DNA of 64,000 nt from an uncultured virus (IMG/VR IMGVR_UViG_3300025141_000074). Taxonomy: Duplodnaviria; Heunggongvirae; Uroviricota; Caudoviricetes. The notes below the pieces were generated by a model. It worked only from the letters and a program-made list of their open reading frames with translations. It had not been told where the DNA came from and did no database searches. The DNA is taken from the IMG/VR virus record IMGVR_UViG_3300025141_000074; one strand, written 5' to 3'. Made by a program: the position numbers and the translations under genes. Shown piece by piece: positions 39,928-62,598 of the stretch; the first letter of the stretch is position 1; the number at the start of each line of letters is the position of its first letter.

Positions 39928-40335
39928 ATGAATGAATTAGAGCTAATACGTAACCATTTTCTTGGTTTTCACAATGACTTTTTTAATAGTTTTAGAAAAG
40001 TATCAACTTATCCACCATACAACATAAAAGAAAAGGATGACTTAGGTGTCATTGAATTTGCTGTAGCCGGGTTCGCTGAGAAAGATTTGAAAGTTGAAGT
40101 TAAAGAGAATACTTTAAGTATTCATGGATGCAAAGATAAAGAAGCATCACTAATGACTACAGAAGATTTTTGGCATAAAGGAATTTCTGACAGGAGTTTC
40201 ACCAAAAAATTTCAATTACATAAACATATTGTAGTTGATAATGCTGAACTGAAAGATGGATTACTTAAGGTTTCTTACCACAGGGATATACCTGAGGCTG
40301 AAAAACCTAAACAAATAAAAATTAAATCCAAGTAG
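39928..40335 (+). CDS. hsp20: Small heat-shock protein (Hsp20/IbpA family)
   Basis: YPPYNI, IEFAVAGF, HKGISDRSF, AELKDGLL, IPEAEKPKQIKI. Confidence 0.92.
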   Translation: MNELELIRNHFLGFHNDFFNSFRKVSTYPPYNIKEKDDLGVIEFAVAGFAEKDLKVEVKENTLSIHGCKDKEASLMTTEDFWHKGISDRSFTKKFQLHKHIVVDNAELKDGLLKVSYHRDIPEAEKPKQIKIKSK

Positions 40336-41755
40336 AAAGTTCTTCACCGCTAATTTCTTTAGCGATGTTAACTTTATTCCGAAGGGACTTAATGATTTTA
40401 TCATCCACAGTCCCTTTGGCTACTAGATCTATATAGAGTACCGCATTCTTTTGCCCTATACGATGGGCACGGTCTTCTGACTGTATTCTTTTCTCCAGAT
40501 CATAATTGTTTGAATAATAAATCACTGTGCTTGCAGCAGTTAATGTGATTCCATAGCCACCCGTCTGGGTGTTTCCTATAAAGAAACGTATGGAAGTCTT
40601 TCCCTGGAAAGCATTAATGCACGTTTGCCGGTCTTCTTGAAGTGTGGCACCATAATAAGTACAACAAGAACTGGAGCCATATTCTTCTGAAATGGCTTTT
40701 TCTATTCGTTTAATGTCGTGGATATAGTTGGCCCAGATAATTACTTTCCCTGTCGTCTCCCCTAGAATCTGCATCAATTCATCAAGTCTATTATTTTTAA
40801 GGTCCAGTGTGTCACCACCATCCGTTTTCATATGCCCACATGTTATCTGGTGCAATCTAATTAATTGTGTCAAAACATTGACAGCTGTAAGTGAATGCCC
40901 TTGTAGTACAGCCATAGCATTTGATTTCATGTCCTTGTATGCCACTTGCTGTTCATCCGTTAATTCTACTTCCCGTCTTGTATATACCTTATCTGGTAGG
41001 TCAAGGCAGTCTTTCTTCAATATACGGTATGAGTGTGGTGATACAAGTTGCCCTAATTGTGACAAATTCTTAAATTTTACAATCTTCTGGTACTTGTGTG
41101 TTCCACCTGCGGCATTCGCTGTAATGACCACGGCGTACCGGGTTCTAAAGGCATAATAACTTTGTTGACCCAGTATTTCTGGATCAAGGAAATCCATCTG
41201 TGCCCATAGATCCATGGGGGATTGTGTCACTGGCGATCCCGTCATTATACGTCTGTACTTAGTCTCTTTAGCGAGTGATAAAATATTCTTTGTTCTTTTT
41301 GCTTGGGGATTTTTAATGGTTGTGCTTTCATCCACAATCATCATCGCTTTACCAATTAAAAATAATTTGGCAAATTCCAATCCTTTTTTAGTGGAAAATG
41401 CTTCCACGTTCATGACCATAATTTTTAATCTATAGTCATTCAAATCCATTATGTTTTTTAATTGTGCTCTGTATTTCGCACTCGTGGATGGTTTCCATGC
41501 CAATACATTCTTTTCAATGTAGTCAGGAACATGGGTAGGAATTTCCAAATCTACCCAGTTCATATACGCACCTTTAGGGGCAACCACTAGTAAGCGGTCT
41601 ATTTTGCCTCGATTATAAAGTATGCATGCATTATCCAATGCTATTTTAGTTTTTCCTGTACCCATTTCCGCAAAGATAGCAAAGGCTTCTTTATTCCAAC
41701 ATTTTTTTAAGGCATCTTTTTGATGCTCATATGGCTCTGTTTTAAATTTATACAT
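40322..41755 (-). CDS. SNF2-family (SF2) helicase
   Basis: EMGTGKT, VDEST, MTGSP, GGYGITLTAA, QSEDRAHRIGQ. Confidence 0.92.
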   Translation of the reverse strand: MYKFKTEPYEHQKDALKKCWNKEAFAIFAEMGTGKTKIALDNACILYNRGKIDRLLVVAPKGAYMNWVDLEIPTHVPDYIEKNVLAWKPSTSAKYRAQLKNIMDLNDYRLKIMVMNVEAFSTKKGLEFAKLFLIGKAMMIVDESTTIKNPQAKRTKNILSLAKETKYRRIMTGSPVTQSPMDLWAQMDFLDPEILGQQSYYAFRTRYAVVITANAAGGTHKYQKIVKFKNLSQLGQLVSPHSYRILKKDCLDLPDKVYTRREVELTDEQQVAYKDMKSNAMAVLQGHSLTAVNVLTQLIRLHQITCGHMKTDGGDTLDLKNNRLDELMQILGETTGKVIIWANYIHDIKRIEKAISEEYGSSSCCTYYGATLQEDRQTCINAFQGKTSIRFFIGNTQTGGYGITLTAASTVIYYSNNYDLEKRIQSEDRAHRIGQKNAVLYIDLVAKGTVDDKIIKSLRNKVNIAKEISGEELSTWI

Positions 41756-41771
41756 TTTTATTTCTTAATTC

Positions 41772-41800
41772 TTGCATTACATTATATACTATGTTATAAT
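41772..41800 (+). promoter_or_regulatory. sigma70-type promoter of the replication operon
   Basis: TTGCAT 41772-N17-TATAAT 41795 with extended TG. Confidence 0.7.
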
Positions 41801-41831
41801 ACAAATCAAGAAATAAAAAGGAGAAATAAAT

Positions 41832-42281
41832 ATGACTTTATTATATAGTCCAACTAAAATACATTGGAAAGATTATGAAGGAATGTCTGTACCTAATTTA
41901 GGTATGAAATGGTCATTAGAGTTAACTTTTGTTCAAGACTTAGAGGAAGCTGATATGTTTGATCATTTTTTAATTAATAAATCAAAACCAATTACTAATT
42001 ATCCAGAAGTAGTGGAAGATCCGAAAGGGGGTCCTGTTCCCGGAGATGAGGAAGAAAGATATACTGATTTTTTAGATTTTCGTCCTGGATTAAGAATTAA
42101 GGAAGATTGGTTTTTTAAACAACCAGAATATTACACTCAATCATGGGAAATAGTAAAACATGAAATTTTGGATTTAAAAGAAATTAAAAAAAATTATGTT
42201 TCATTTTTTCGTAATATAAAAGGATTTTCTAAAGAAGATCAACAAAAAATAAGTACGCAATTAAGTGAAATCCATGATTAA
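41832..42281 (+). CDS. Hypothetical protein (AT-rich)
   Basis: AGGAG RBS; first gene after the promoter. Confidence 0.7.
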   Translation: MTLLYSPTKIHWKDYEGMSVPNLGMKWSLELTFVQDLEEADMFDHFLINKSKPITNYPEVVEDPKGGPVPGDEEERYTDFLDFRPGLRIKEDWFFKQPEYYTQSWEIVKHEILDLKEIKKNYVSFFRNIKGFSKEDQQKISTQLSEIHD

Positions 42282-42452
42282 GTGGTATACAAAAACTGTT
42301 AAAAAAATTAGATGGGATACAGATATTATAAGTCCTATCATTAAAAAAATTATATGTACAGCCTACAAAAAAGGTTTTGATGGTATTTCTGTTCGCTCGT
42401 CCACAAGAATAGATAGTAGGGGTAGGAAAATATTATTTATTGAGGAGATTAA

Positions 42453-44156: not shown

Positions 44157-45647
44157 GTGGAAGAATTCAAAAATATATTTGAAGGTCTCGACGTAGCTTA
44201 TGGTCAGCACCAATCCGAAGGGAAACGTGCTGACGGTAAGGAGGAAGGGAAGTCTTACATTGTTAAAAAAATTGTTACGGATAATTTATGGCAGTCTCAT
44301 TTGGCTGGTGAAGGTCCTTCTTTGGGTATTATTCCTATCATGGCTGATAACACATCCCGATGGGGTTGTATTGATATTGATACTTATCCTATTGATTATC
44401 GTAAAATAATAAACAGTATCAGAAAATTAAAAATACCATTAGTTCCCTGCCGATCAAAAAGCGGGGGGCTTCATTTATTCTTATTTTTTAAAAACCCAGT
44501 ATCCGCCAAATTAATACGAGAGAAATTACGAGAGGTTGCCTCAGGTCTAGGATATTCTTCCGTCGAAGTATTTCCCAAACAATCGACAATACTAATAGAA
44601 AAAGGGGACTTAGGAAATTTTTTAAATCTTCCTTATTATAACGCCAAAAATACAACAAGATATGCTTACAAAGATGATGGAACCGCCGCAACATTGCGCG
44701 AGTTCATATCCTTATATAATAAATATTCAGTGGCCGGTACCGACGAAGTTGCAATCCAGGTATCCGGTGACGTCATAAAGGATGGGCCACCGTGTCTACA
44801 ACAATTATGCACGCAGGGATTTTCAGAAGGAGGAAGGAACAATGGACTCTTTAACATTGGTGTTTACTTAAGAAAATTTGATGCCGATAATTGGAAGACT
44901 TTGTTGGAAGAATATAACAGAAATTATATGGCACCGCCCTTAGCGGCGCAGGAAGTTATTATTGTTCAAAAACAATTAGAGAAAAAAGATTATAATTATA
45001 GATGCAAAGAGCCACCTATTAATTCCTACTGCAATGCTAAAGTATGTAGAGGACGTAAGTACGGTATAGGAAATGGTAGTGCGGCATTAGAATTTAGTGC
45101 GTTAACCAAATTACAGACAGACCCACCAGTGTGGTTTTTGGATGTAGGTGACACGCGAATGGAATTACAAACAGAGGAGTTACAGATACAAACAAAGTTT
45201 CAAAAGAAATGTATGAATTCTTTGGACACGATGCCTCCTCTAGTAAAACAGTCAGTATGGCAGGAAATAATTGAAAGGCTAATGAATAACCTTATCAAGA
45301 TTCCTGTTTCTGATGATGGGTCCTTGGCCGGTCAATTTGAAGCTTTCCTCCAGGAGTTTTGTACTGATCGCGCCCAGGCCTTAAATCGAGATGAATTATT
45401 ATTACGAAAACCCTGGACAGAGGAAGGAACTACTTGGTTTCGGTTAAAGGACTTACAGGATTATTTAACGAGAAATAAGTTTACCTATTTTAACACGGGG
45501 CAATTAGTCCAAGCTTTGAGACATCTTAAAGGTAAAAGTGAAAAATATAATTTAAAAGGCAGGACAGTTCGTGTGTGGGGTGTGCCTGCATACCAAACAC
45601 AGGATTCAGCTTTTGATATAAAGGAGATTGATAGTGCCCCATTCTAA
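44157..45647 (+). CDS. AEP-type primase with PriCT-like domain
   Basis: WGCIDID (DxD), RSKSGGLH, GNFLNLPY, GPPCLQ, GGRNNGLF. Confidence 0.8.
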   Translation: MEEFKNIFEGLDVAYGQHQSEGKRADGKEEGKSYIVKKIVTDNLWQSHLAGEGPSLGIIPIMADNTSRWGCIDIDTYPIDYRKIINSIRKLKIPLVPCRSKSGGLHLFLFFKNPVSAKLIREKLREVASGLGYSSVEVFPKQSTILIEKGDLGNFLNLPYYNAKNTTRYAYKDDGTAATLREFISLYNKYSVAGTDEVAIQVSGDVIKDGPPCLQQLCTQGFSEGGRNNGLFNIGVYLRKFDADNWKTLLEEYNRNYMAPPLAAQEVIIVQKQLEKKDYNYRCKEPPINSYCNAKVCRGRKYGIGNGSAALEFSALTKLQTDPPVWFLDVGDTRMELQTEELQIQTKFQKKCMNSLDTMPPLVKQSVWQEIIERLMNNLIKIPVSDDGSLAGQFEAFLQEFCTDRAQALNRDELLLRKPWTEEGTTWFRLKDLQDYLTRNKFTYFNTGQLVQALRHLKGKSEKYNLKGRTVRVWGVPAYQTQDSAFDIKEIDSAPF

Positions 45648-46056
45648 TTTTAAATACGGAGACAGAAGAAAAGATGGATATGTGTGGGTTGGATTGAGAT
45701 ATAGCCGAGGGAAAAGAAAAGATGGAACTTATCCAAATGATTGGCGTAGCCCACAGTCTTTTGAAAAGAAAAATGAAGCAGGGAGAAAATATAAAAAGAA
45801 AATATATAATTTAATTAGCAAAATGGCGAATGATGAAAAGATAAAACATGGATGTTACCATTGTGGTTATAATAAAGATCCTGTGGCATTGGATTTTCAT
45901 CACATTAATAGAGCTAATAAGATTAGAAATGTATCAAGTCATTGGAGAACAAGCATGGTACAATTTAAAAAAATGAAAGAAGAATGGAAAAAATGTATGG
46001 TTCTGTGTGCTAATTGTCATAGACTAGAGGAGAAAAGGATTAGAAATGAAAACTAA
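45628..46056 (+). CDS. HNH endonuclease
   Basis: CYHCG...LDFHH...CMVLCANCHR. Confidence 0.85.
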   Translation: MIVPHSNFKYGDRRKDGYVWVGLRYSRGKRKDGTYPNDWRSPQSFEKKNEAGRKYKKKIYNLISKMANDEKIKHGCYHCGYNKDPVALDFHHINRANKIRNVSSHWRTSMVQFKKMKEEWKKCMVLCANCHRLEEKRIRNEN

Positions 46057-47545
46057 AATAATATTAGGACCTCCTGGTACAGGGAAAACGCACAACTTAT
46101 TAAATTTGGTTGAACAAGAATTAGCGAAAGGTACACCACCGGACCGTATCGCCTTCGTGGCTTTTACAAAGAAAGCGGCTAGTGAAGCGAGGGACCGGGC
46201 TACAAAGAAGTTTGATTTAGAAGAACAACATTTACCTTATTTTAGAACATTGCATTCATTTGCCTTTCATCAGTTAGGATTAACAAAATCAGAAGTAATG
46301 TCACGTGATAATTATAAAGAGTTTGCGCAGTCATTCGGCATGGATCTAGGATCAGTATCTGATGGTGTAGATTCCGGTGGAGTATTTACAGTTGATAACC
46401 AGCTCCTATCAGAGGTTAATTTATCACGAATGAAATGTATGGATTTAGAACAACATTATAATGATTCTAATTTAGATGTATCTTGGCACGCACTACTCAG
46501 AGCTCAACGTTCACTTGAAGAATTTAAAAAGAAAAAAGAAGTATTAGATTTTACAGACATGATAGAAATGTACATTGAATCAGGAATGATTCCGAAATTA
46601 GATATAGTTTTTGTTGATGAAGCACAGGATTTATGCGCCCTACAGTGGCGTATGGTACATAAAATTTGTCAAAACGCCAAACAAGTGTACGTAAGCGGTG
46701 ATGATGATCAAGCTATTTACCGTTGGGCTGGTGCAGATGTAGAACATTTAATTGGTTTGGATGGTGAAAGACAAGTCTTACAACAGTCTTATAGATGCGC
46801 ACGCCTTATACAAAATTGTTCACAAGGAATTATAGGTAGGGTTCAAAATAGAATTAATAAAACATGGCATGGTACAAACACTAGAGGATTAGTGCAATAC
46901 CATTCTTACCCCGACAGTGTAGATATACGCGATGAGAATTGGCTTATCATGGCACGAACCAATTATTTACTCGATGAAATAGAACGCGACATAAGATTAC
47001 AAGGATTATTTTATAAAAGAAATAATCGTTTGCCTATATCGCAGAAATTATTAAATGCTACAGCTTCTTGGAAAAAATTAAATCAAGGTGAGCATATAGA
47101 ATTACCAGAAGTGAAAACTATTTATTCTTATATGTCATCAGAAATAGGAATAGAACGCGGTCACAAAGGTTTAAAAACAGCTGATAAAGAAAATTATGAA
47201 CTAGAAGATTTAGTTAAGAATCATGGATTACTTGTAGGAGGAAGACCGTGGGATGTAGCTTTTGATAAGGTAGGAACGCGTGATAAAGAATTTTTACGGT
47301 CTATTGAAATGAGAAACAAGGATTTTGTAAAATCAGATCCAAAGATTCATTTAAGCACGATTCATGGTGCTAAAGGAGGAGAAGCAGACAAAGTTATGTT
47401 GCTGACAGACTTATCAAGAAAGTCACAGGAAGCAATGGAAAAAGATTCAGATGATGAATGCCGTGTATTTTATGTAGCAGCTACACGTGCTCGTAATGAG
47501 CTACACATAGTACAACCACAAAGACAGGGAGGGTTCATAATATGA
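46046..47545 (+). CDS. UvrD/Rep-like SF1 helicase
   Basis: GPPGTGKT, AFTKKAA, VDEAQD, GDDDQAIY, STIHGAKGGE, YVAATRA. Confidence 0.92.
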   Translation: MKTKIILGPPGTGKTHNLLNLVEQELAKGTPPDRIAFVAFTKKAASEARDRATKKFDLEEQHLPYFRTLHSFAFHQLGLTKSEVMSRDNYKEFAQSFGMDLGSVSDGVDSGGVFTVDNQLLSEVNLSRMKCMDLEQHYNDSNLDVSWHALLRAQRSLEEFKKKKEVLDFTDMIEMYIESGMIPKLDIVFVDEAQDLCALQWRMVHKICQNAKQVYVSGDDDQAIYRWAGADVEHLIGLDGERQVLQQSYRCARLIQNCSQGIIGRVQNRINKTWHGTNTRGLVQYHSYPDSVDIRDENWLIMARTNYLLDEIERDIRLQGLFYKRNNRLPISQKLLNATASWKKLNQGEHIELPEVKTIYSYMSSEIGIERGHKGLKTADKENYELEDLVKNHGLLVGGRPWDVAFDKVGTRDKEFLRSIEMRNKDFVKSDPKIHLSTIHGAKGGEADKVMLLTDLSRKSQEAMEKDSDDECRVFYVAATRARNELHIVQPQRQGGFII

Positions 47546-47835
47546 CCAAAGAAGAAATATTAGCTGAAGCTAGTAGAATAATATCCAGAGATAGAAATTT
47601 ATCTCATGGAGATGCATTCAAGAATCATGCAGAGATTGCAGAGTTTTGGAATTTGTTTTTAGATGATAAGTTACGACCTATGGCTGATATTACAGCTAAA
47701 GACGTGGCAATTATGATGATATTATTAAAAATTTCACGTTCCAATCAGGGAAAGAAATTTAACTTGGATAATTTTGTTGACATGGCGGGTTATTCAGCGA
47801 TTGCAGGAGAAATTGGTGACTCAGGATCTTTTTAA
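47542..47835 (+). CDS. DUF6378-like all-alpha nucleotide pyrophosphohydrolase-like protein
   Basis: RNLSHGD...IAEFW...VAIMMILLKISR...DNFVDMAGY. Confidence 0.65.
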   Translation: MTKEEILAEASRIISRDRNLSHGDAFKNHAEIAEFWNLFLDDKLRPMADITAKDVAIMMILLKISRSNQGKKFNLDNFVDMAGYSAIAGEIGDSGSF

Positions 47836-49660
47836 AACAGTAAATTCCAATTGGGTTGCACCCACGGAATTTCCTAAACTTGAAGGCAAAGTAGCAGTAG
47901 ATCTAGAGACGTGTGATCCACACTTAATCAAGGAAGGACCAGGATGGCCACGTAAGCGTGGTTATGTCATTGGCATCGCTATAGCGAATGCCTCTTTTAA
48001 AGGATACTATCCTATTGCTCACTCTGGTGGGGGGAACATGGACGAAAAGAAAGTTATTAAGTATGTTAAGTCCATATGTGAAGACGCTTTCATAGAGAAA
48101 TTGTTTCACAATGCGCAATACGATATTGGTTGGCTTTCCACCCTTGGAATAGAAGTTAAGGGAAGAGTTCATGACACCATGGTAGCTGCGGCACTCATAG
48201 ATGAGAATAGATTCTCCTATACATTAAACAGCATTGTGCATGAATATCTAGGAGAGTTTAAGAATGAACAAAAGCTTAAGGAAGCGGCTGACGCCTTTGG
48301 CGTTGATCCCAAGAATGAAATGTACAAGTTGCCATCCACCTTTGTGGGTGAGTACGCTGAAGCGGATGCTGATCTGACATACAAGTTGCATGAAAAATTA
48401 TCATGGGAAATTGTCAAGGATAATCTTACAACGGTATATGATCTGGAATGCAATCTTATTCATGTAATTTACAGAATGACCAAGACGGGTGTGAGATTTG
48501 ATCAATATAAATGCGTGAGTCTTAATGACAAATTTAAAAATAAAGAAAAAAAATTAATGAAAAGGATTAAGGATCTAACCGGACTTAATATAGAGATATG
48601 GGCAGCAGCATCCATCTCGAAAGCTTTTGATGCGTTGAACCTACCCTATGAAAGAACGGAAAAGACCAATGCTCCTTCCTTTACGAAGATGTTCCTTACG
48701 GACCATCCACATGAGTTACCTCGGTTAATTATGCAGGCGAGGGAATTGAACAAATTAAGGGGAACCTTCCTGCATGGGTTATTAAATCACAACAATGACG
48801 GGAGGATACATGCTCACATTAACCAAATTAGGTCTGACAGTGGAGGTACTGTCACTGGTCGCTTTTCTTATAATCATCCTAATTTACAGCAGATTCCGAG
48901 TAGGGGTCAATTCGCGAAAGACATTAGGAAACTTTTCATCCCGGAAAGTGGGAAGTACTGGCTCAAAGCGGACTACTCGCAACAAGAGCCCAGGTTACTT
49001 ACACACTGGGCAAGACTCGTCGACCAACCCGGTGCTAGGGAAGTACAGGAAGCATATCATAAAACGGACCTCGACTTTCACCAACAAACAGCCGAAATGG
49101 CAGGTGTGGAGAGACGTCTTGCGAAGACTATCGGACTAGGTGTCATGTATGGCATGGGCTATAATAAATTAGCGCGTGACTTGGACCTTGAACCACAGGA
49201 AGCAAAGAAAATGCTTACTGATTTCCGTGCACGTGTACCCTTTATGCAAGGAATGCTCGAAGCAGTTATGAATAGGGCCAATTCTAAGGGTGTTATTCGT
49301 ACATTGCTTGGACGTAAATGTAGGTTTGATTTATGGGAACCAACACAATGGGGTGTTCACAAGGCACTCCCGCTGAATCAAGCAAAGGTGGAATATGGTG
49401 ATGCTATTAAAAGAGCATATACTTACAAGGCATTAAATAGATTGATTCAAGGCTCAGCTGCGGATCAAACCAAGAAAGCCATGGTTGATGTATATGAACA
49501 ATTAAATCTCATTCCTCACATCCAGGTACATGATGAACTTAACTGTTCTGTAACAGATGAAAATGAAGGAAAGAAAGTAAAGGAAGTAATGGAAACTTGC
49601 GTGGAACTTGAGGTTCCATCAAAGGTCGACATCAATGTAGGAGAAAGTTGGGGCGAATGA
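47816..49660 (+). CDS. polA: Family A DNA polymerase with 3'-5' exonuclease
   Basis: DLET, HNAQYD, TGRFS..PNLQQIP, DYSQQEPR, KTIGLGVMYG, IQGSAAD, VHDEL. Start moved to GTG 47816 after AGGAG. Confidence 0.95.
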   Translation: MTQDLFKTVNSNWVAPTEFPKLEGKVAVDLETCDPHLIKEGPGWPRKRGYVIGIAIANASFKGYYPIAHSGGGNMDEKKVIKYVKSICEDAFIEKLFHNAQYDIGWLSTLGIEVKGRVHDTMVAAALIDENRFSYTLNSIVHEYLGEFKNEQKLKEAADAFGVDPKNEMYKLPSTFVGEYAEADADLTYKLHEKLSWEIVKDNLTTVYDLECNLIHVIYRMTKTGVRFDQYKCVSLNDKFKNKEKKLMKRIKDLTGLNIEIWAAASISKAFDALNLPYERTEKTNAPSFTKMFLTDHPHELPRLIMQARELNKLRGTFLHGLLNHNNDGRIHAHINQIRSDSGGTVTGRFSYNHPNLQQIPSRGQFAKDIRKLFIPESGKYWLKADYSQQEPRLLTHWARLVDQPGAREVQEAYHKTDLDFHQQTAEMAGVERRLAKTIGLGVMYGMGYNKLARDLDLEPQEAKKMLTDFRARVPFMQGMLEAVMNRANSKGVIRTLLGRKCRFDLWEPTQWGVHKALPLNQAKVEYGDAIKRAYTYKALNRLIQGSAADQTKKAMVDVYEQLNLIPHIQVHDELNCSVTDENEGKKVKEVMETCVELEVPSKVDINVGESWGE

Positions 49661-56097: not shown

Positions 56098-56427
56098 ATG
56101 AATAATTACATGTCAAAAAACGAATTAGCTGAATCGCTTGGGATTAGTCTTGCAACGATTAATCGCAAACTAAAAGAAATTCCTCATGTAAAAATGGGGG
56201 GTGTCCAACAAAGTAGGGTATTATTTGATCCTGAAAAGATTAAGAAATATCTTAAAAAATTTGAAGTTAACCTACCCATGGATAAAAAAGATTCGGAACG
56301 TGATTTGAGTTGGGCACAAAATTTTTGGCCTTACCATGACAAAGAAGGCACGATAGTCTTTCTTAACGAAGTGAATCCAAATAACAAGCGTGATCAACAG
56401 CAATGGGGCAGAATTTTAGATGGTTGA
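56098..56427 (+). CDS. Excisionase/AlpA-like winged HTH DNA-binding protein
   Basis: YMSKNELAESLGISLATINR...IPHVKMGG...RVLFD. Confidence 0.7.
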   Translation: MNNYMSKNELAESLGISLATINRKLKEIPHVKMGGVQQSRVLFDPEKIKKYLKKFEVNLPMDKKDSERDLSWAQNFWPYHDKEGTIVFLNEVNPNNKRDQQQWGRILDG

Positions 56428-57129: not shown

Positions 57130-57499
57130 CTTATGGCAAAATAAAAAGGTTATCGAGAAGGTAGTCAAGCAGTTTGAGGGTGATGAGAAGGTGCTGGAAT
57201 TTATCAAGAACAATTTTGATAAGGATGAGGAATTACCTAGACTGGACCGCGAAAAAGGATATCTTCGTCCTAAAAAGAGTGATATAATAATTACATGGTC
57301 AAAAGTAGCTACTTATGTTCGCAAAAATGCACCAAAGAGACTGGGTCTCAATGAGCAGGAAGAGGAGCTTAAGGATACATTGGATAAGTCAATTACCCAG
57401 GAGACTATTAATGAATGGGGTAAAAATGAGATGTTTAGGCAAGTAAGAAAGCATTATTGGGGTCACCCCAATGCAAAAGGACAAGAAGATATTAGATAA
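57110..57499 (+). CDS. Hypothetical protein
   Basis: Overlapping ORF in the same operon. Confidence 0.6.
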   Translation: MQTYEINLWQNKKVIEKVVKQFEGDEKVLEFIKNNFDKDEELPRLDREKGYLRPKKSDIIITWSKVATYVRKNAPKRLGLNEQEEELKDTLDKSITQETINEWGKNEMFRQVRKHYWGHPNAKGQEDIR

Positions 57500-57515
57500 G
57501 CGACTAGGATGGACG

Positions 57516-57743
57516 ATGAAAAAGAACACGAAGAAGGAAGGATTGACACCCAAGCAAAAATGGGTGTTTGAGGCCATCAAGGACTTCATTCAACAGAATG
57601 GACATTCACCCTCTTATGAGGAGATCAAGCAGCTGATGGGGGTACGCTCCAAGAGTAATGTGCATGCATATGTGCATAGATTAGCGACACGTGGATGGAT
57701 AGGATTTGGAAATGGCAGAAATCGGTCAATTTACATTTTATAA
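57516..57743 (+). CDS. LexA-type DNA-binding domain protein (no peptidase domain)
   Basis: LTPKQKWVFEAIKDFIQQNGHSPSYEEI...GVRSKSNVHAYVHRLATRGWI...RSI. Confidence 0.8.
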   Translation: MKKNTKKEGLTPKQKWVFEAIKDFIQQNGHSPSYEEIKQLMGVRSKSNVHAYVHRLATRGWIGFGNGRNRSIYIL

Positions 57744-57958
57744 GGGGTCACCATAGTGATATATTTGCTCAAAAGTTTTTTTTATTTACGTACCGGGGAT
57801 GAAACTGGTGCCACAGTGACACATTTACTGATTAAGCTATATAAATCAATCATTTATTGTGTGGCACCTATGTGTCACTACTCTAGACGACGCAAGGCGC
57901 TTTTTTGTTTTTTACAAAACAAAATGAGTAAAAATATAACTATACCAGGGGTTTACAA

Positions 57959-58636
57959 GTGGTAGATGAACGATTGAAAGGTGCCACAAGTGGTGCCACA
58001 AATGTGGTCAAAAAGAGGCAATGGATTCCAGGTGAAAAGGGCCATGGACGCCCAGGAGTTCCTGGAAGTGGTGGAGCTAAACACCATCCACTCAGGGCTG
58101 ATGGATTGACTGACAAGCAACAGATCTTTGTTAAGATATTTACAGAGAATGAAGGTAGGATGACACCCACTGAATGTGCTAGGCAAGCTGGTTATGCTGA
58201 AGGATCGGCGAGTATAACTGCATCTGTTTTATTAAATGGTAAAAGATACCCTAAGGTGGTAGAAGCTATCCTCGCACGACGTGCTGAGATGGAAAAGACG
58301 CATGAGGTTAAACTAAATAAACATGTACAGGAATTGGCTAGGCTGCGTGAAAGGGCTCTTAATGAGAAGTCTTATTCTGCTGCTGTTAATGCTGAGCGCT
58401 TGCGAGGGCAAGCTGCGGGATTGTACATCGATAGAAAAGAAATTCGAACGGGTTCAATTGACAGTATGTCTAGAGAGGACGTTTTAAACAAGTTAAAGGA
58501 AATAGGATTAGATGGAAAATTTAAAAAGGAAGGCAATCAAACTGTCCTTTCGGTCGAAGAGAAATCCAGTAGCGATGGAGCTGAAGACATCACCGAAATA
58601 CAAACAGAGGATAGTGAAAGACAAGACAAAGTATGA
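57959..58636 (+). CDS. terS: Terminase small subunit
   Basis: LTDKQQIFV...TECARQAGYA...ASVLL; AAVNAERLRGQAAGLY. Confidence 0.8.
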   Translation: MVDERLKGATSGATNVVKKRQWIPGEKGHGRPGVPGSGGAKHHPLRADGLTDKQQIFVKIFTENEGRMTPTECARQAGYAEGSASITASVLLNGKRYPKVVEAILARRAEMEKTHEVKLNKHVQELARLRERALNEKSYSAAVNAERLRGQAAGLYIDRKEIRTGSIDSMSREDVLNKLKEIGLDGKFKKEGNQTVLSVEEKSSSDGAEDITEIQTEDSERQDKV

Positions 58637-59040
58637 CCGTAAAACCGGAAACAAACTTTTGGAAGAGTTTAAAGACATTATTAGACGGTGGTGACTATAT
58701 TGTTTCACGCCTTGAATCATATGTCACACCGGGTTTTCCCGATTGCATAATATTTCACAATGTTACAGGATTCTTCACAGTTGAATTAAAGATAGTTCAA
58801 CCTAATAATAAAATACACCTCTCTCCCTTCCAAATTTCCTGGAATTCACGTCATGCGATAGCAGGAGCCCATTCTTACATCTTAGTTAACCTACCCCTCA
58901 AGGGTACGGTTAAACTGTTTCACGGGTGTAAAACAAAGGAACTAGGGCATAGCACCGTGGACCAAGTGCCCGGGTTATACGAGGGAAGGCTCGAGGACCT
59001 AGATTGGCTTAAACTCCCAAACTCCTGCAAAAACCCTTAA
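58633..59040 (+). CDS. PD-(D/E)XK nuclease, Holliday-junction-resolvase-like
   Basis: ETNFW...RLES..TPGFPD...VELK...LSPFQISW. Confidence 0.75.
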   Translation: MTVKPETNFWKSLKTLLDGGDYIVSRLESYVTPGFPDCIIFHNVTGFFTVELKIVQPNNKIHLSPFQISWNSRHAIAGAHSYILVNLPLKGTVKLFHGCKTKELGHSTVDQVPGLYEGRLEDLDWLKLPNSCKNP

Positions 59041-59222
59041 ACCTCACTATATGGGCCGTGGATCCTGTGGTCCGGGCGCCCGGCGCGCAGCTTCTTCCTG
59101 TCAAGTTCAAACTCCGAAACTCCATAGGGGAAGCCAAAATCCTTAAATGATAATACAGGGTCAGGATCCTGGATGCCCGGGGCGCAGCTGGAGTGCGTCA
59201 GGAAAAAAGTTCAAATGAGCTG

Positions 59223-59251
59223 TTGCATTGTGGATAACTTTATGTTATAAT
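59223..59251 (+). promoter_or_regulatory. sigma70-type promoter with a DnaA box in its spacer
   Basis: TTGCAT 59223-N17-TATAAT 59246 with extended TG; TGTGGATAA at 59229-37. Confidence 0.75.
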
Positions 59252-59351
59252 AAGGGTAGAAATAGAGTATTTATAAGCGCAAGTATACTTGGTCTGTTTG
59301 TATGGTTAAAAGCCCGTACTCTATTTCTTATAAATAGAAATGGAGCAAAAT

Positions 59352-59564
59352 ATGGTTGTAGATGATACAATAAGCCAAGCACTCAATAGGATTGCTGATG
59401 GCATAGAAGAAAGTAATGCATTATTAGATAGGATTGCGAATCATTATGATGGGGTTGTTCCCATTATGACACGCAATCAAAAGAGAGCTGAAGCGTTAGC
59501 CGAGGAGCAAGAGCAAACTTTTGCACAAGGTATAAAGAACATCTTTAGTCCTCAAGAGCATTAA
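59352..59564 (+). CDS. Small coiled-coil hypothetical protein
   Basis: GGAG RBS, ATG 59352; ALNRIADGIEESNALLDRIANHY. Confidence 0.7.
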   Translation: MVVDDTISQALNRIADGIEESNALLDRIANHYDGVVPIMTRNQKRAEALAEEQEQTFAQGIKNIFSPQEH

Positions 59565-59887
59565 ACTCCTAAACTCCCATAGGTTATCTATAAGTAAAAA
59601 TTGTGGATAACCTGTGGATAATTTGGGCACCGGGGGCGCTGCGCGCTGACGCAAACTCCCGTTAAAAAACATAAGGCTTTCTGCCGTTTTGTGCGAGCTT
59701 CATTGTTCCCACCGGGCGCGCCCGGGATTTCCGTGGAGCGATGAGCTTTGGAAAATAAGAATGGCTGATTTGCTTGTGTCCCGGGCCTTAAATAAATACG
59801 CCTGGACCCTGAATACCTGTTGACCTTCCAGGAAGCAGGTGGTAAAGATGGTATTTAAACGAAGAGATGGGAAGAAAGAGAAAGAAA

Positions 59888-59980
59888 ATGGCGCATTTAA
59901 TAGGTATTTTAATACTCGGAACCGTGAAGGTTGCAGCTGGAGCTGCAGTCATTTGGATCCTCGTGCAGCTGCTGGGGTGA
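59888..59980 (+). CDS. 30-aa hydrophobic membrane peptide (not in ORF track)
   Basis: MAHLIGILILGTVKVAAGAAVIWILVQLLG after a purine-rich leader. Confidence 0.5.
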   Translation: MAHLIGILILGTVKVAAGAAVIWILVQLLG

Positions 59981-60120
59981 TGTAAACTCCCGTAAACTCC
60001 CTTAACCTCACTAAACTGCAAATGTTTGGTCTTTGGTTTCGGGCACCGGGCGCGCCCGGGTGGAGTGGCGATGGAGATGAGACTTGGTCAAAGTTATCCA
60101 CAAGAAAAAGAAAGATTGGG

Positions 60121-60149
60121 TTGAGATGAATTACATTTGATGATATAAT
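60121..60149 (+). promoter_or_regulatory. sigma70-type promoter
   Basis: TTGAGA 60121-N17-TATAAT 60144; DnaA box at 60094-60102. Confidence 0.7.
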
Positions 60150-60153
60150 GATG

Positions 60154-60322
60154 ATATGTGTTGGTAGCCACACATATAAAAAAGGACTACCAGTCTAAGC
60201 TGAGGAGAACCCAGTGAACGCTTATGCGTACGGAAGTGTATAAGGGCTTCCATAAGCAACATAGTTGCCAGACGCTAGACAAGATGAGGCAAGATAAACG
60301 GAGTTATTCGGCTCTTGCCTCA
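60154..60322 (+). ncRNA. Candidate small structured RNA (~165 nt)
   Basis: Directly follows a near-consensus promoter; several helices; ends in a 10-bp stem TGAGGCAAGA/TCTTGCCTCA; no convincing ORF. Confidence 0.5.
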
Positions 60323-60334
60323 CAAACTCCCTTG

Positions 60335-60450
60335 CAAACTCCTATTCCAATCTAATTGCCCATTAATACGAATCAGTTCCCGGGCGCGCACAAACTCCCA
60401 CAAACTCCTATTCCAATCTAATTGCCTATTAATACGAATCAGTTCCCGGG
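60335..60450 (+). repeat. 50-bp tandem duplication, 66-bp period, 1 mismatch
   Basis: CAAACTCCTATTCCAATCTAATTGCCYATTAATACGAATCAGTTCCCGGG at 60335 and 60401. Confidence 0.95.
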
Positions 60451-60491
60451 GGCGCCTGTCTTCAGGCACGGCAGTTCAGATTATTAGGCAT

Positions 60492-60522
60492 AAAAAAAGG
60501 GCGAACATTGTTCGCCCTTCTT
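60492..60522 (-). terminator. Rho-independent terminator for 60541..60828
   Basis: AAAAAAAGGGCGAAC-ATT-GTTCGCCCTT; the A-run gives a U-tract on the minus strand. Confidence 0.8.
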
Positions 60523-60540
60523 ATAACTATGTGGATAGGT

Positions 60541-60828
60541 TTACATAGTTAAACCCATTCTTTTCAAGATGTATCCAACATCACCTTGCAGTCTTTTAAT
60601 CAAGTCAAGTCTTGCCTCCTTATCTTCTGCAACCCACTCAACGAGTGAGTTCATTAGTACACCACTAATTAGTTTCCAATCCATACTGTCTTTTGCAGGA
60701 ACTTTACTAATCAGTTGTTCCAAGTCTCCAATACTTGCTTGGTCTTTGGAGTATTCTATTACTTCCTTCATTACAGGAGTAATATCAACGTTGTTGATTG
60801 ATTTCGTAGTAGTTAAATCGTTTGGCAT
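60541..60828 (-). CDS. Hypothetical protein
   Basis: AAAGGA RBS, own terminator, DnaA boxes upstream. Confidence 0.7.
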   Translation of the reverse strand: MPNDLTTTKSINNVDITPVMKEVIEYSKDQASIGDLEQLISKVPAKDSMDWKLISGVLMNSLVEWVAEDKEARLDLIKRLQGDVGYILKRMGLTM

Positions 60829-61137
60829 AATTACCTATCCTTTCTATTTCTAATTAATAGATATCATGCATCATCAACCATTGATATAGCTAAATGCAAT
60901 TAGTTGTGGATAACTATTGTCAATAGCTAATAGTAGTAAGTTGTGGATAACCTGTGGATAACTGCGCCCGGGCTCTTATTGCGGCTCACTCCGTTCGCCG
61001 CCCGGTCCAGACTCCCAAACTGCGAGGGGGGAACCCCCCTTTCGACTTACCTCCTCTAGAATTTTGCGAAGGCAAGATTGAGAGTGACAATCACCCCAAA
61101 AAACGTTATGACTCTTATTTGTAAAAATTTTTAAAAA

Positions 61138-62598
61138 ATGGAAACAGTTTCGAATTTAGAATCCCTCGATACAAACACGCTCAAGCTACTTTTAAGAAAT
61201 GAGCTTGCAAGAAAGCAAGAAGCCTCCCAGGCAGATTTTTTAAAATTTGTGAAAGTTGTTTGGCCAGACTTCATCGAAGGAAAACATCACAAAATTTATG
61301 CGGAGAAATTGAACCGTATAGCAAATGGGGACCTAAAAAGGCTTATTGTCAATATGCCTCCTCGTCATACAAAATCAGAATTTGCTTCACACCTCTTTCC
61401 GGCCTTTTATATGGGCCGTCACCCAAAAGCCAAATTAATTCAGACAACACATACTGGGGAATTAGCCATTCGCTTTGGACGTAAGGCCAAGAACATGATA
61501 GAGTCCTCGGATTATGAAAAAGTTTTTCCAGATGTCAGGTTGGCAGCCGATTCAAAAGCTGCTGGACGTTGGGAGTCTAATCATGGTGGTGAGTATTTTG
61601 CTGCTGGTGTGGGTGGTGCTATCACTGGGCGTGGTGCTGATCTCCTTATTATTGATGATCCTCATTCGGAACAAGATGCTCTTTCACCACACGTTTTGGA
61701 GCAACATTACGAGTGGTACACTTCTGGTCCTCGTCAGCGTTTACAGCCAGGAGGCGCTATAGTTCTTGTTATGACAAGATGGTCTGTCAAAGACCTCACT
61801 GGTAAATTGCTCGAGGCCCAAGGAAAAAGTGAAATGTCGGACGAGTGGGAGATCGTGGAATTTCCTGCCATTATAAAAGATAAACCCATGTGGGGAAATT
61901 TCTGGACCATGGACGGATTGCAAGGCGTCAAGGCTTCCATCCCACTAACCAAGTGGCAAGCACAATGGATGCAGCAGCCTACTTCCGAGGAAGGTGCACT
62001 TATAAAACGTGAGTGGTGGCAGATATGGGAAGAGGAAAAGATTCCTCAATTGGAATTTATTATTCAGTCCTATGACACAGCATTCTCCAAAAAAGAAACA
62101 GCCGATTATTCAGCGATTACGACGTGGGGCATATTTGACCCCGACAACGGAAAGGGAAAGGCCCTTATCCTGTTGGATGCGAAGCGTGATCGGTGGAATT
62201 TTCCGGAGCTAAAAAAGGAGGCCATGGACCAATTTAAGTACTGGGAACCGGAGATGGTTATTGTGGAAGCGAAGGCTTCTGGGCTACCATTAACTCATGA
62301 GTTGCAAAAGATGGGAATACCTGTTATAAATTTTACACCCTCAAAAGGAAACGATAAACATTCGAGGGTAAACAGCGTGGCTCCACTATTCGAAGCAGGA
62401 GCCGTTTGGGCGCCCAAAAAAGATTTCGCTGAAGAGGTTATCGAAGAATGCGCAGCATTCCCTTTCGGCGACAATGATGACTACGTGGATTCTACCACGC
62501 AGGCCTTGATGAAATATAGACAAGGCTACCACGTTATGCTAAAAGATGACTTTGAAGATGAGCCAAGTGCTGAAACCGCGGGGAGGGTTTACTACTAA
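61138..62598 (+). CDS. terL: Terminase large subunit
   Basis: NMPPRHTKS (Walker A), LLIIDDPH (Walker B), SYDTA, IVEAKASG, DDYVDST nuclease motif. Confidence 0.95.
   Translation: METVSNLESLDTNTLKLLLRNELARKQEASQADFLKFVKVVWPDFIEGKHHKIYAEKLNRIANGDLKRLIVNMPPRHTKSEFASHLFPAFYMGRHPKAKLIQTTHTGELAIRFGRKAKNMIESSDYEKVFPDVRLAADSKAAGRWESNHGGEYFAAGVGGAITGRGADLLIIDDPHSEQDALSPHVLEQHYEWYTSGPRQRLQPGGAIVLVMTRWSVKDLTGKLLEAQGKSEMSDEWEIVEFPAIIKDKPMWGNFWTMDGLQGVKASIPLTKWQAQWMQQPTSEEGALIKREWWQIWEEEKIPQLEFIIQSYDTAFSKKETADYSAITTWGIFDPDNGKGKALILLDAKRDRWNFPELKKEAMDQFKYWEPEMVIVEAKASGLPLTHELQKMGIPVINFTPSKGNDKHSRVNSVAPLFEAGAVWAPKKDFAEEVIEECAAFPFGDNDDYVDSTTQALMKYRQGYHVMLKDDFEDEPSAETAGRVYY

Follow-up and report, generated by a model that had tools for sequence, protein, structure and literature searches.

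Perfect DnaA boxes at promoter-like sequences between the terminase genes of an uncultured phage: candidate operator-like sites for host DnaA

The window analysed here is a stretch of 64,000 nucleotides, corresponding to positions 1-64000 of a full phage record of 65,059 bases. Between its two terminase genes (terS and terL) lies a gene-poor stretch of 2 kb, to which the DnaA boxes described below are confined. The features of this interval are the following.

57959..58636, plus strand: small terminase subunit (Terminase_2), the left border of the box region
59011..60460, plus strand: strand-specific repeat units (AAACTCC, 35-55 variable bases, CCGGGCGC-type palindrome)
59223..59251, plus strand: P1, sigma-70-type promoter-like sequence TTGCAT-17 bp-TATAAT with a TG extended -10, read from the sequence
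59340..59564, plus strand: 74-aa phage-only protein (P0002 family) downstream of P1, predicted single long helix
59602..59621, minus strand: tandem pair A, two perfect boxes in the same orientation with a 2-bp gap (motif and repeat search)
60094..60102, plus strand: perfect DnaA box tied to P2, 18 bp upstream of its -35
60121..60149, plus strand: P2, TTGAGA-17 bp-TATAAT with TG (promoter-element scan)
60157..60525, plus strand: predicted short non-coding transcript from P2 (hairpin, two repeat units, terminator)
60286-60321: conserved hairpin inside the predicted P2 transcript, with a 9-bp stem and an invariant 18-nt loop
60491-60525: bidirectional intrinsic terminator, the end of the predicted P2 transcript
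60530..60538, minus strand: 8/9 box CTATCCACA, the sole one-mismatch site inside the interval, just past the stop codon of the minus-strand gene
60541..60828, minus strand: 95-aa phage-only helical protein (P0001 family), divergent from TerL
60905..60961, minus strand: three perfect boxes (single box 60905-60913; tandem pair B, 60942-60961)
61138..62598, plus strand: large terminase subunit (TerL), the right border of the box region

A motif search on both strands of the window found seven perfect TTATCCACA sites, all within 59229-60961: on the minus strand at 59229, 59602, 59613, 60905, 60942 and 60953, and on the plus strand at 60094. These sites are real and non-random. Dinucleotide shuffles give a chance expectation of 0.59 +/- 0.78 perfect sites per window, with a maximum of three in any shuffle and seven or more in 0 of 100; by arithmetic from the shuffle mean, about 0.016 sites are expected in 1.73 kb, and the seven found are far above chance. 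No further perfect site occurs in the whole 65,059-bp record. One-mismatch sites are not enriched over the window (27 found, 21 expected), and the cluster is made up of perfect high-affinity consensus sites, not of graded weak ones. The tandem boxes are co-oriented with an 11-bp phasing and a 2-bp gap inside each pair, and the 21-mer formed by such a pair, TTGTGGATAACCTGTGGATAA, is present twice (59601-59621 and 60941-60961). A preliminary description of this DNA had counted seven perfect boxes and one 8/9 box in ~1.75 kb, had placed the tandem pair at these two positions and had noticed no boxes elsewhere in the window; the motif search bears this out on each point. The consensus box is the one bound by E. 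coli DnaA.

The boxes are interleaved with promoter-like sequences and repeats. The first nine bases of the P1 spacer are the box 59229-59237 (TGTGGATAA on the top strand), and P2 is among four sigma-70-type matches scoring 11/12 in the genome. The boxes at 60905-60961 precede both the minus-strand gene and, by 177-233 bp, TerL, and are followed by GC-rich CTGCGCCCGGG. Tandem pair A sits in a repeat unit, with an AAACTCC pair on one side and a GC-rich palindrome on the other, and is faced by a degenerate inverted box, TTATCTATA, at 59584. The AAACTCC motif occurs in 13 copies, mostly paired, and several repeat units contain DnaA boxes or decayed boxes. One unit (59561-59650) folds better than shuffles (z = -5.3) by way of the inverted degenerate box; the units were nevertheless dropped as RNA structures, since three of four folded no better than shuffles. 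The segment from pair B to TerL (60960-61060) gives a folding z of -1.5, and the hairpin at 60286-60321 shows compensatory changes at 4 of its 9 stem pairs. T7/T3-promoter-like strings inside the repeat units (ctcactata, taatacgaatca and ttaacctcactaaa) were considered and set aside; no single-subunit RNA polymerase turned up in the Pfam and PHROGs searches of the large ORFs. Rfam gave sub-threshold matches at the terminator only, no tRNA genes were found, and a megablast of the region against cultured phages returned no match. The P0001 and P0002 proteins fall in no Pfam or PHROG family and correspond in the Atlas to virus-only hypothetical clusters; the structure model of P0001 is of low confidence (pLDDT 67, pTM 0.37), and that of P0002 is one long helix.

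When the comparison is limited to relatives with TerL at least 83% identical and at least 1.9 kb of upstream DNA, 13 of 13 carry 3-10 perfect boxes in the 2.7 kb preceding TerL, and all 13 keep a perfect or near-perfect pair at the position of pair B. In five longer contigs every perfect box belongs to one cluster of at most ~2.4 kb (9/9, 10/10, 5/5, 1/1 and 3/3), which, by offsets, is made of the same boxes as those upstream of TerL. The genome-wide count and the count in relatives, both proposed in the preliminary description, thus give an exclusive cluster shared by the close relatives. Box number varies by genome, with seven in the window, nine in L003 (99% TerL identity) and ten in L004, the pairs being duplicated, and metagenome contigs contain joints between repeat units. 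Two more distant relatives, HTVC027P and 023Pt_psg01, have 0 perfect boxes genome-wide and no 8/9 cluster near TerL; their identity to the window phage is 33% and 41%, respectively, for the primase and 34% and 42% for the SF1 helicase. DNA of the phage is present in marine metagenome runs from many studies, and RNA-library contigs cover pieces of 58988-59661 and 60604-60779, without information on transcript starts, ends or levels.

The position of the boxes relative to the promoter elements is itself conserved. In an ungapped alignment of 11 distinct sequences (mean identity 63%), the box lies exactly 18 bp upstream of a P2-type -35 in 11 of 11, and the only invariant columns are the nine box positions, the TTG of the -35 and the TA of the -10; the spacings are 18 and 17 bp. 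The P1-type arrangement, in which the box directly follows the -35 within a 17-bp spacer, is found in the window, in L003 and L016 and at further homologue loci, and also in a clade with 66% TerL identity (L005 and L008; TTGACT, box, TATAAA). On the minus strand, boxes overlap the -35, and 5 of 10 aligned relatives show an 18-bp distance between the box end TCCACA and TATAAT; in the window itself the -10 of this promoter is a poor one (TATCAA). No recognisable promoter accompanies tandem pair A or the duplicated pairs of L003 and L004. A general rule of a box 18 bp from the -35 was dropped, being absent from 100 unrelated viral and 119 bacterial loci with the 21-mer. The sites of the phage thus qualify as TTATCCACA boxes by their exact 9-bp match, their above-chance frequency and their conservation as invariant columns, and they lie over or beside the -35 and -10 at conserved distances, as boxes of DnaA-regulated promoters do. 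A perfect box is found within 130 nt upstream of 16 of the 19 distinct P0002 homologues, in two different geometries, which indicates that rearrangement has not parted these genes from the boxes; for P0001, only 10 of 21 homologues have a box within 300 nt upstream. The phage repeats differ by clade (CCGGGCGC-type in the window clade, CCCCCCTTCGGGGGG in the 66%-TerL clade) and the 9-mer is constant, a pattern in keeping with a conserved host reader.

Neither Bac_DnaA nor Bac_DnaA_C domains were found in the six frames of the phage. Judged from its sequence, the cluster would be bound by DnaA and, because the phage has no DnaA homologue, by that of the host. No RNA polymerase homologue was found in the window phage with Pfam and PHROGs on the large ORFs, and a six-frame search for a single-subunit RNA polymerase, weak since its control matched nowhere, found none. 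The promoter-like sequences would be early promoters used by the host RNA polymerase. In the cultured relative HTVC027P, which depends on the host RNA polymerase, the genes classed as Early include gp35 and gp38, which lie directly upstream of TerL and have the highest TPM; TerL is classed as Late (PMC12753301, Tables S2/S3). This phage has early genes at the equivalent place, yet no boxes, and DnaA control is therefore not essential to the early programme of the family.

DnaA is an established activator or repressor of transcription (PMC8203912), and we give about even chances to the reading in which the early region of the phage has host DnaA as a transcription factor and is probably repressed by it, the boxes being conserved operator-like sites. 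A box in the P1 spacer or over the minus-strand -35 would stand in the way of polymerase, P2, which would drive the small hairpin RNA, would be modulated by its invariant box at about -62 to -54, and the tandem boxes, 11 bp apart, could nucleate a DnaA oligomer; the net effect would be that the hairpin RNA and the two small phage-only proteins are expressed according to the level of free DnaA. For P2, activation and repression are not distinguishable from sequence, and repression is most probably the overall outcome. The bacterial promoters known to be regulated by DnaA, as described in PMC8203912 (dnaA autoregulation among them), likewise carry a consensus 9-mer inside, over or just upstream of sigma-70-type elements, with repression or activation possible; the present case differs in that promoter-like sequences of a lytic phage stand before phage-only small genes and a small RNA, that the arrangement is conserved clade-wide, and that regulation is deduced from sequence. 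The preliminary description had offered three functions for the cluster, namely an early origin, a DnaA sponge and a sensor linking phage transcription to the host cell cycle: the transcriptional sensor is now favoured by the fixed promoter geometry and by the early-expressed counterpart in HTVC027P, and the origin is weakened.

An origin of phage replication that depends on, or is assisted by, DnaA is the alternative that survives best, and we consider it unlikely. It would lie especially at 60905-60961, with DnaA opening the DNA or recruiting host DnaB, the AAACTCC repeats serving as iterons and nearby promoters activating the origin by transcription. No DnaB-type helicase was found in the window phage, which is in keeping with such recruitment, and the preliminary description was right that the phage otherwise encodes its own primase, helicases and PolA, assigned here by profile search.

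40322-41755, minus strand: SNF2 helicase
44157-45647: AEP primase
46046-47545: SF1 helicase
47774-49660: PolA

Several properties of the cluster speak for an origin: the boxes point the same way at an 11-bp phasing, the group of three to five co-oriented boxes at 60905-60961 adjoins a 100-bp stretch of 73% A+T (top 2-3% of windows), the strand-specific repeats are iteron-like, and a strong promoter and a structured RNA are close by. The 21-mer is moreover a common unit of bacterial arrays, with ~260 stretches in species genomes, often of 7-26 boxes per 3 kb. In iteron replicons that carry host DnaA boxes (P1 oriR, F, pSC101 and RK2), boxes, including tandem ones, are similarly placed beside short direct repeats and A+T-rich DNA. 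However, no Rep-type initiator was found among the phage genes. Three boxes fall within 57 bp beside the 73% A+T DNA, and the full set is scattered over 1.75 kb as four groups, each linked to a promoter or a repeat unit. HTVC027P and 023Pt_psg01, furthermore, keep the primase and the SF1 helicase but have 0 boxes, so that the boxes are not retained with the replisome. The genome reaches its highest A+T content and lowest duplex stability at 41.7-42.3 kb, next to the replication genes, and the GC-skew inflection proposed as a check in the preliminary description is lacking at the cluster, the cumulative skew rising throughout the region (a weak test, nearly all genes being on one strand). A DnaA-trio-like sequence, TAGTAGTAAG, beside pair B in the window was dropped, as relatives read ATGCAATTAG or similar. 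In lambda, DnaA stimulates at pR/ori-lambda the transcription needed for origin activation; there too a phage uses the host initiator at a promoter, but lambda is temperate, has its own O and P initiator proteins and differs from the window phage in box number and geometry.

A second alternative, distinctly improbable in our estimate, is that the boxes act on DnaA and not through it, as a sink or a datA- or DARS-like element: the multiplying phage genome would titrate or inactivate DnaA and so stop new rounds of host replication. Small chromosomal clusters such as datA and DARS do modulate DnaA, and they resemble the phage cluster as small groups of high-affinity boxes outside the origin. The uniformly perfect consensus, the quick change of copy number by pair duplication (7 in the window, 9 in L003, 10 in L004) and the joints between repeat units in metagenome contigs would all suit titration, and the varying box number among close relatives (3-10) fits a dosage role as well as it fits promoter control. 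A sink has no need of fixed promoter spacing, however, and the benefit to a lytic phage is not evident. The datA locus of E. coli is also defined by an IHF site between essential boxes, whereas the IHF consensus WATCAANNNNTTR (that of E. coli, from general knowledge) is absent from 58.6-61.1 kb, the nearest match being at 57844; the phage region thus departs from a datA locus.

We regard as very improbable a genome-end function of the kind proposed for T5, in which DnaA would tether incoming DNA to the membrane or bring it to a halt there, or would aid terminase at a pac site in the terS-terL interval. The location of the cluster suits this idea, as do similar arrays in the non-coding DNA of four cultured phages: five perfect boxes in ~100 bp in the T7-like P483, between the packaging genes and gene 0.3; an array beside A2/A1 in the T5-like Vibrio phage Luma; an array near a genome end in a Litunavirus; and one in non-coding DNA of Lactococcus phage LW81. 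In Davison's account, T5-like phages have eight paired DnaA boxes in the terminal repeat, within its non-coding injection-stop region, where membrane-bound DnaA was proposed as the injection stop (Davison 2020, 10.1101/866236). Both are lytic phages with conserved, perfect or near-perfect paired boxes of putative function in repeat- and palindrome-rich non-coding DNA beside the earliest genes. The T5 pairs, however, are 3 bp apart, in inverted repeats and within a known terminal repeat, whereas those of the window are co-oriented with a 2-bp gap and several of its boxes are promoter-locked. The contig breaks off within a gene and shows no terminal repeat; the T5 model, too, is a proposal, and a genome-end role leaves the fixed promoter geometry unexplained. 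Least probable of all is that the 9-mer is read by a protein other than DnaA, such as a phage LexA-type protein or another host factor, with a coincidental match to the consensus: the phage does encode a stand-alone LexA_DNA_bind protein (57471-57743) and an HTH protein (56098-56427), but conservation ends exactly at the borders of the 9-mer, the same 9-mer recurs in clades with different repeat motifs and as perfect 9/9 matches 3-10 times per relative, and arrays with the identical 21-mer pair occur in bacteria of many phyla.

DnaA-box arrays are a known but little-studied element of phages, T5-like, T7-like and other cultured ones among them; in a literature search no report of DnaA boxes in this phage group came up, and a term search of two HTVC023P-type papers returned no mention of DnaA. 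Beyond the reading of host DnaA as a regulator of the early promoters, we tentatively raise a wider proposal, possible though by no means probable: an abundant lytic marine phage lineage may have wired its first genes (the small hairpin RNA and the two small proteins) to the host initiator, setting its early programme by free DnaA as a gauge of host replication and growth state or as a timer after loss of the host chromosome, and the arrays in early or terminal non-coding DNA of T5-like, T7-like, N4-like and cyanobacterial phages may reflect the same strategy. Nearly all bacteria have DnaA, and its level signals a cell's readiness for replication. If the proposal is true, it would give a virus that lacks an RNA polymerase of its own and known early regulators a simple means of timing or conditioning its early genes, and it would account for the unexplained box arrays that recur in several phage families.

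We consider it about an even call that host DnaA would bind the box cluster between the terminase genes terS and terL, and would act there as a transcription factor on the phage early region. Perfect TTATCCACA sites number exactly seven in the window, against a dinucleotide-shuffle expectation of 0.59 +/- 0.78 per window (maximum 3). One-mismatch sites are not enriched over the whole window (27 observed vs 21 expected). The 21-mer TTGTGGATAACCTGTGGATAA, which contains a tandem box pair, has two copies (59601-59621 with pair A, 59602-59621; 60941-60961 with pair B, 60942-60961). The parent virus record is one sequence of 65,059 bases, of which the window covers 1-64000, and no perfect box occurs in the remainder. 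Seven perfect boxes with one 8/9 box, a tandem pair present twice and no perfect box elsewhere had been reported in a preliminary description, and the site count and the motif count over the full record bear this out. The features of the region are as follows.

59229, 59602, 59613, 60905, 60942 and 60953, minus strand: perfect DnaA boxes, exact match to TTATCCACA
60094, plus strand: perfect DnaA box, exact match to TTATCCACA
60530: 8/9 box CTATCCACA, the sole 8/9 site within the interval
57471-57743: stand-alone LexA-type DNA-binding protein, 90 aa (Pfam E = 5e-15), without peptidase domain
57959-59040: small terminase gene and a small ORF, left flank of the box region
59888-59980: 30-codon ORF encoding the hydrophobic peptide MAHLIGILILGTVKVAAGAAVIWILVQLLG
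60286-60321: conserved hairpin (within 60157-60525), 9-bp stem and 18-base loop
60491-60525: bidirectional intrinsic terminator, end of the predicted P2 transcript
from 61138: large terminase gene, right flank of the box region

The boxes sit in a 2-kb gene-poor stretch from the terS-side genes (57959-59040) to terL (61138), in a genome whose genes nearly all run rightward. The small ORF beside terS appears PD-(D/E)XK-like from its sequence, and its PHROGs assignment is helicase. The window phage is a podovirus-like marine phage, with TerL relatives in 023Pt_psg01 (65%), the Pelagibacter phages HTVC027P (64%) and HTVC023P (56%), and DSL-LC04; its DNA is present in marine metagenome runs of many studies. 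The genome is nearly complete (95%, tool figure) but not closed: the record (63616-65059 and 1-42) terminates inside an ORF without end overlap, and its ends differ from the physical ends. A phage-encoded primase, helicases and PolA, as described earlier, were indeed found (AEP primase, SF1 and SNF2 helicases, PolA), together with an exonuclease. Six-frame searches of the phage returned neither a DnaA domain nor a DnaB-type helicase, and no T7-type RNA polymerase was found, the control of one of the polymerase searches being uninformative.

Conservation in related phages, proposed earlier as a check, is evident among close relatives. In a survey of 80 TerL-related IMG/VR loci, TerL is at least 83% identical in 16; all 13 of these with at least 1.9 kb upstream of TerL have 3-10 perfect boxes within 2.7 kb upstream, and the other three, with just 67-606 bases there, include one locus with one perfect box. 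In five longer close-relative contigs every perfect box falls in a single cluster of at most about 2.4 kb (9/9, 10/10, 5/5, 1/1 and 3/3), and, by their offsets, these are the same boxes upstream of TerL. One or two boxes are retained upstream of TerL in the 64-66% TerL clade, and loci at 60% or below mostly have none. Perfect boxes are absent from the whole genomes of HTVC027P, 023Pt_psg01 and two complete IMG/VR relatives, whose 13-kb TerL loci also lack any cluster of 8/9 sites. The cluster is therefore lineage-specific and stably retained.

Box-free relatives with a shared primase and helicase, HTVC027P and 023Pt_psg01, are the foremost counterpoint to a DnaA-dependent phage replication origin at the cluster, which we regard as unlikely. 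Co-oriented, phased boxes beside 73% A+T DNA, iteron-like repeats and a phage without DnaB-type helicase would suit an origin; however, the boxes are dispersed, the GC-skew inflection that had been suggested as a check is absent from the cluster, and the DNA at 41.7-42.3 kb is more A+T-rich. This last stretch (41700-42300), where the genome is richest in A+T and least stable, separates the divergent SNF2 helicase gene from the replication module and is an alternative origin candidate.

The boxes are accompanied by phage-specific repeats. The motif AAACTCC has 13 plus-strand copies, strand-specific and mostly in pairs, all within 59011-60402, and CCGGGCGC palindromes number eight in the region vs none elsewhere. 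Each repeat unit (59011-60460) comprises two AAACTCC copies, 35-55 variable bases and a CCGGGCGC(G)CCCGG palindrome, and begins at the stop codon of a small gene; three of the four units tested fold, as RNA, no better than shuffles. The units are kept in close relatives, and the clade with about 66% TerL identity has other GC hairpin repeats (CCCCCCTTCGGGGGG) instead, while the box 9-mer is constant across clades. The LexA-type protein, whose gene lies 1.3 kb upstream, is a candidate binder of these repeats. T7/T3-promoter-like strings (ctcactata, ttaacctcactaaa, taatacgaatca) also occur in the units (59040-59060, 60005-60020, 60362-60378, 60428-60444), and no single-subunit RNA polymerase gene to match them was found in the phage. 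Metagenome contigs across 59025-60963 join distinct repeat units or box pairs (e.g. 59625 to 60937, 59035 to 59702), indicating natural variants by gain or loss of units. The same box, AAACTCC and CCGGGCGC signature is borne by a 9.8-kb contig in a bacterial MAG bin (titled Planctomycetaceae bacterium TMED10), probably a phage contig in the wrong bin and therefore uninformative on the host.

Several boxes are placed at fixed distances from promoter elements. P2 (60121-60149) is among four 11/12 sigma-70-type matches genome-wide: the box at 60094, on the plus strand, lies exactly 18 bp ahead of TTGAGA-17 bp-TATAAT with a TG extension. An ungapped alignment of 11 distinct relatives has a mean identity of 63%; invariance in it is confined to the nine box positions, the -35 TTG and the -10 TA, and the 18 bases separating box and -35 vary freely. 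This pattern is the phylogenetic footprint of a unit made up of box and promoter, in which the box is predicted at about -62 to -54. P1 (59223-59251) reads TTGCAT, box, eight bases and TATAAT with a TG extension, and the box therefore occupies the start of the 17-bp spacer; this arrangement recurs in L003, L016 and several other loci, and with TTGACT and TATAAA in the 66% clade (L005, L008). On the minus strand, the TCCACA end of the box closest to the minus-strand gene lies exactly 18 bp before TATAAT in five of ten aligned relatives, so that the box would overlap the -35, with the tandem pair just upstream; the window's own -10 is weak (TATCAA). No recognisable promoter was found at pair A or at some extra pairs of relatives, which lie within repeat units. 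Among the three options first put forward (origin, sponge or sensor), it is the link to transcription that this geometry favours, the origin being countered by the box-free relatives. The fixed geometry is left unaccounted for if the boxes are a DnaA sink or a datA/DARS-like element, a doubtful reading to which every site being a perfect box and the fast-changing copy number lend something, and against which stands the lack of an IHF site in the region.

No conserved ORF follows P2 over the approximately 340 bases up to the terminator, and the predicted whole transcript folds more stably than shuffles (z = -3.8). Across 17 distinct sequences the loop of its hairpin does not vary; 98% of cells pair, with compensatory changes in four of nine pairs. 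On four of five measures only 0-1 of 500 shuffles match the observed value (11/500 on the count of further pair types), and no Rfam family was matched. The loop contains CGGAGUU, complementary to AACUCCG of the repeats that follow, and the hairpin is a possible small regulatory RNA or nut/put-like element. P1 sits 5' of the gene for a 74-aa protein (P0002), for which 16 of 19 distinct homologues show a perfect box no more than 130 nt upstream, in P1 or P2 geometry; the remaining three are truncated or preceded by a longer leader. For the 95-aa minus-strand protein (P0001), a box lies within 300 nt upstream in 10 of 21 homologues, and in L047, L064, L068, L078 and L050 a different ORF begins beside the tandem pair. 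Both are virus-only families without annotation, modelled as a single long helix (P0002) and a low-confidence helical bundle (P0001). A tiny membrane-peptide ORF similar to that at 59888-59980 occurs in L076, L077 and L082, with a perfect box exactly between ribosome-binding site and ATG.

A phage literature search on DnaA boxes gave one directly relevant text, a preprint on T5-like phages that describes eight boxes, arranged as pairs, in their non-coding injection-stop region and proposes a membrane-anchoring model (Davison, 10.1101/866236); another paper gives an Ori-Finder prediction in the legend of a figure, and a term search of two papers on HTVC023P-type phages turned up neither DnaA nor promoters nor origins for the group. 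Pair B, compared with cultured phages by short BLAST, matched 425 records at least in part, and we describe four of these. The T7-like Escherichia phage P483 has five perfect boxes in about 100 bp of unannotated non-coding DNA from the packaging genes to gene 0.3 (L329 2495-2597); Lactococcus phage LW81 has seven in 360 bp, likewise unannotated and non-coding (L332 2475-2838), four of them about 20-21 bp apart; the T5-like Vibrio phage Luma has one plus two consensus variants (TGTGCATAA, TGTGTATAA) in non-coding DNA adjoining A2/A1; and a Litunavirus has one near a genome end. P483 and LW81 are cultured lytic phages with dense perfect-box arrays. An estimated 310 IMG/VR stretches carry the exact 21-mer, and about a quarter of the 126 loci listed bear this clade's motifs. 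The arrays in cultured phages and the position between terS and terL would agree with a genome-end role as proposed for T5, which is improbable here.

Least probable is that a protein other than DnaA reads the 9-mer, given its constancy despite clade-specific repeats, a pattern that fits a conserved host reader, and given that the identical 21-mer pair is common in box arrays of bacteria across many phyla, with some 260 stretches that frequently have 7-26 boxes in 3 kb. Co-oriented sites with a 2-bp gap have the spacing of the E. coli oriC array for DnaA oligomer growth. In bacteria, DnaA is an established promoter activator or repressor (PMC8203912). In HTVC027P, TerL is immediately preceded, on its own strand, by genes gp35-gp39; among six genes looked up in its transcriptome, gp35 and gp38 are Early with very high TPM and TerL is Late, and this phage, without its own RNA polymerase, depends on the host enzyme (PMC12753301, Tables S2/S3).

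If host DnaA does regulate the early region, a box within the spacer or over the -35 would block RNA polymerase. The P0002 gene occurs with either geometry, which makes the same sign probable for the box at -58 as well. In that case, a rise in free DnaA would lower the output of hairpin RNA and small proteins, and scarcity of DnaA would raise it. The arrays in cultured phages and the T5-like boxes make this a known but unexplained kind of feature; the new element is that boxes here are coupled, in a conserved and base-exact manner, to promoter elements and a constant set of early products.
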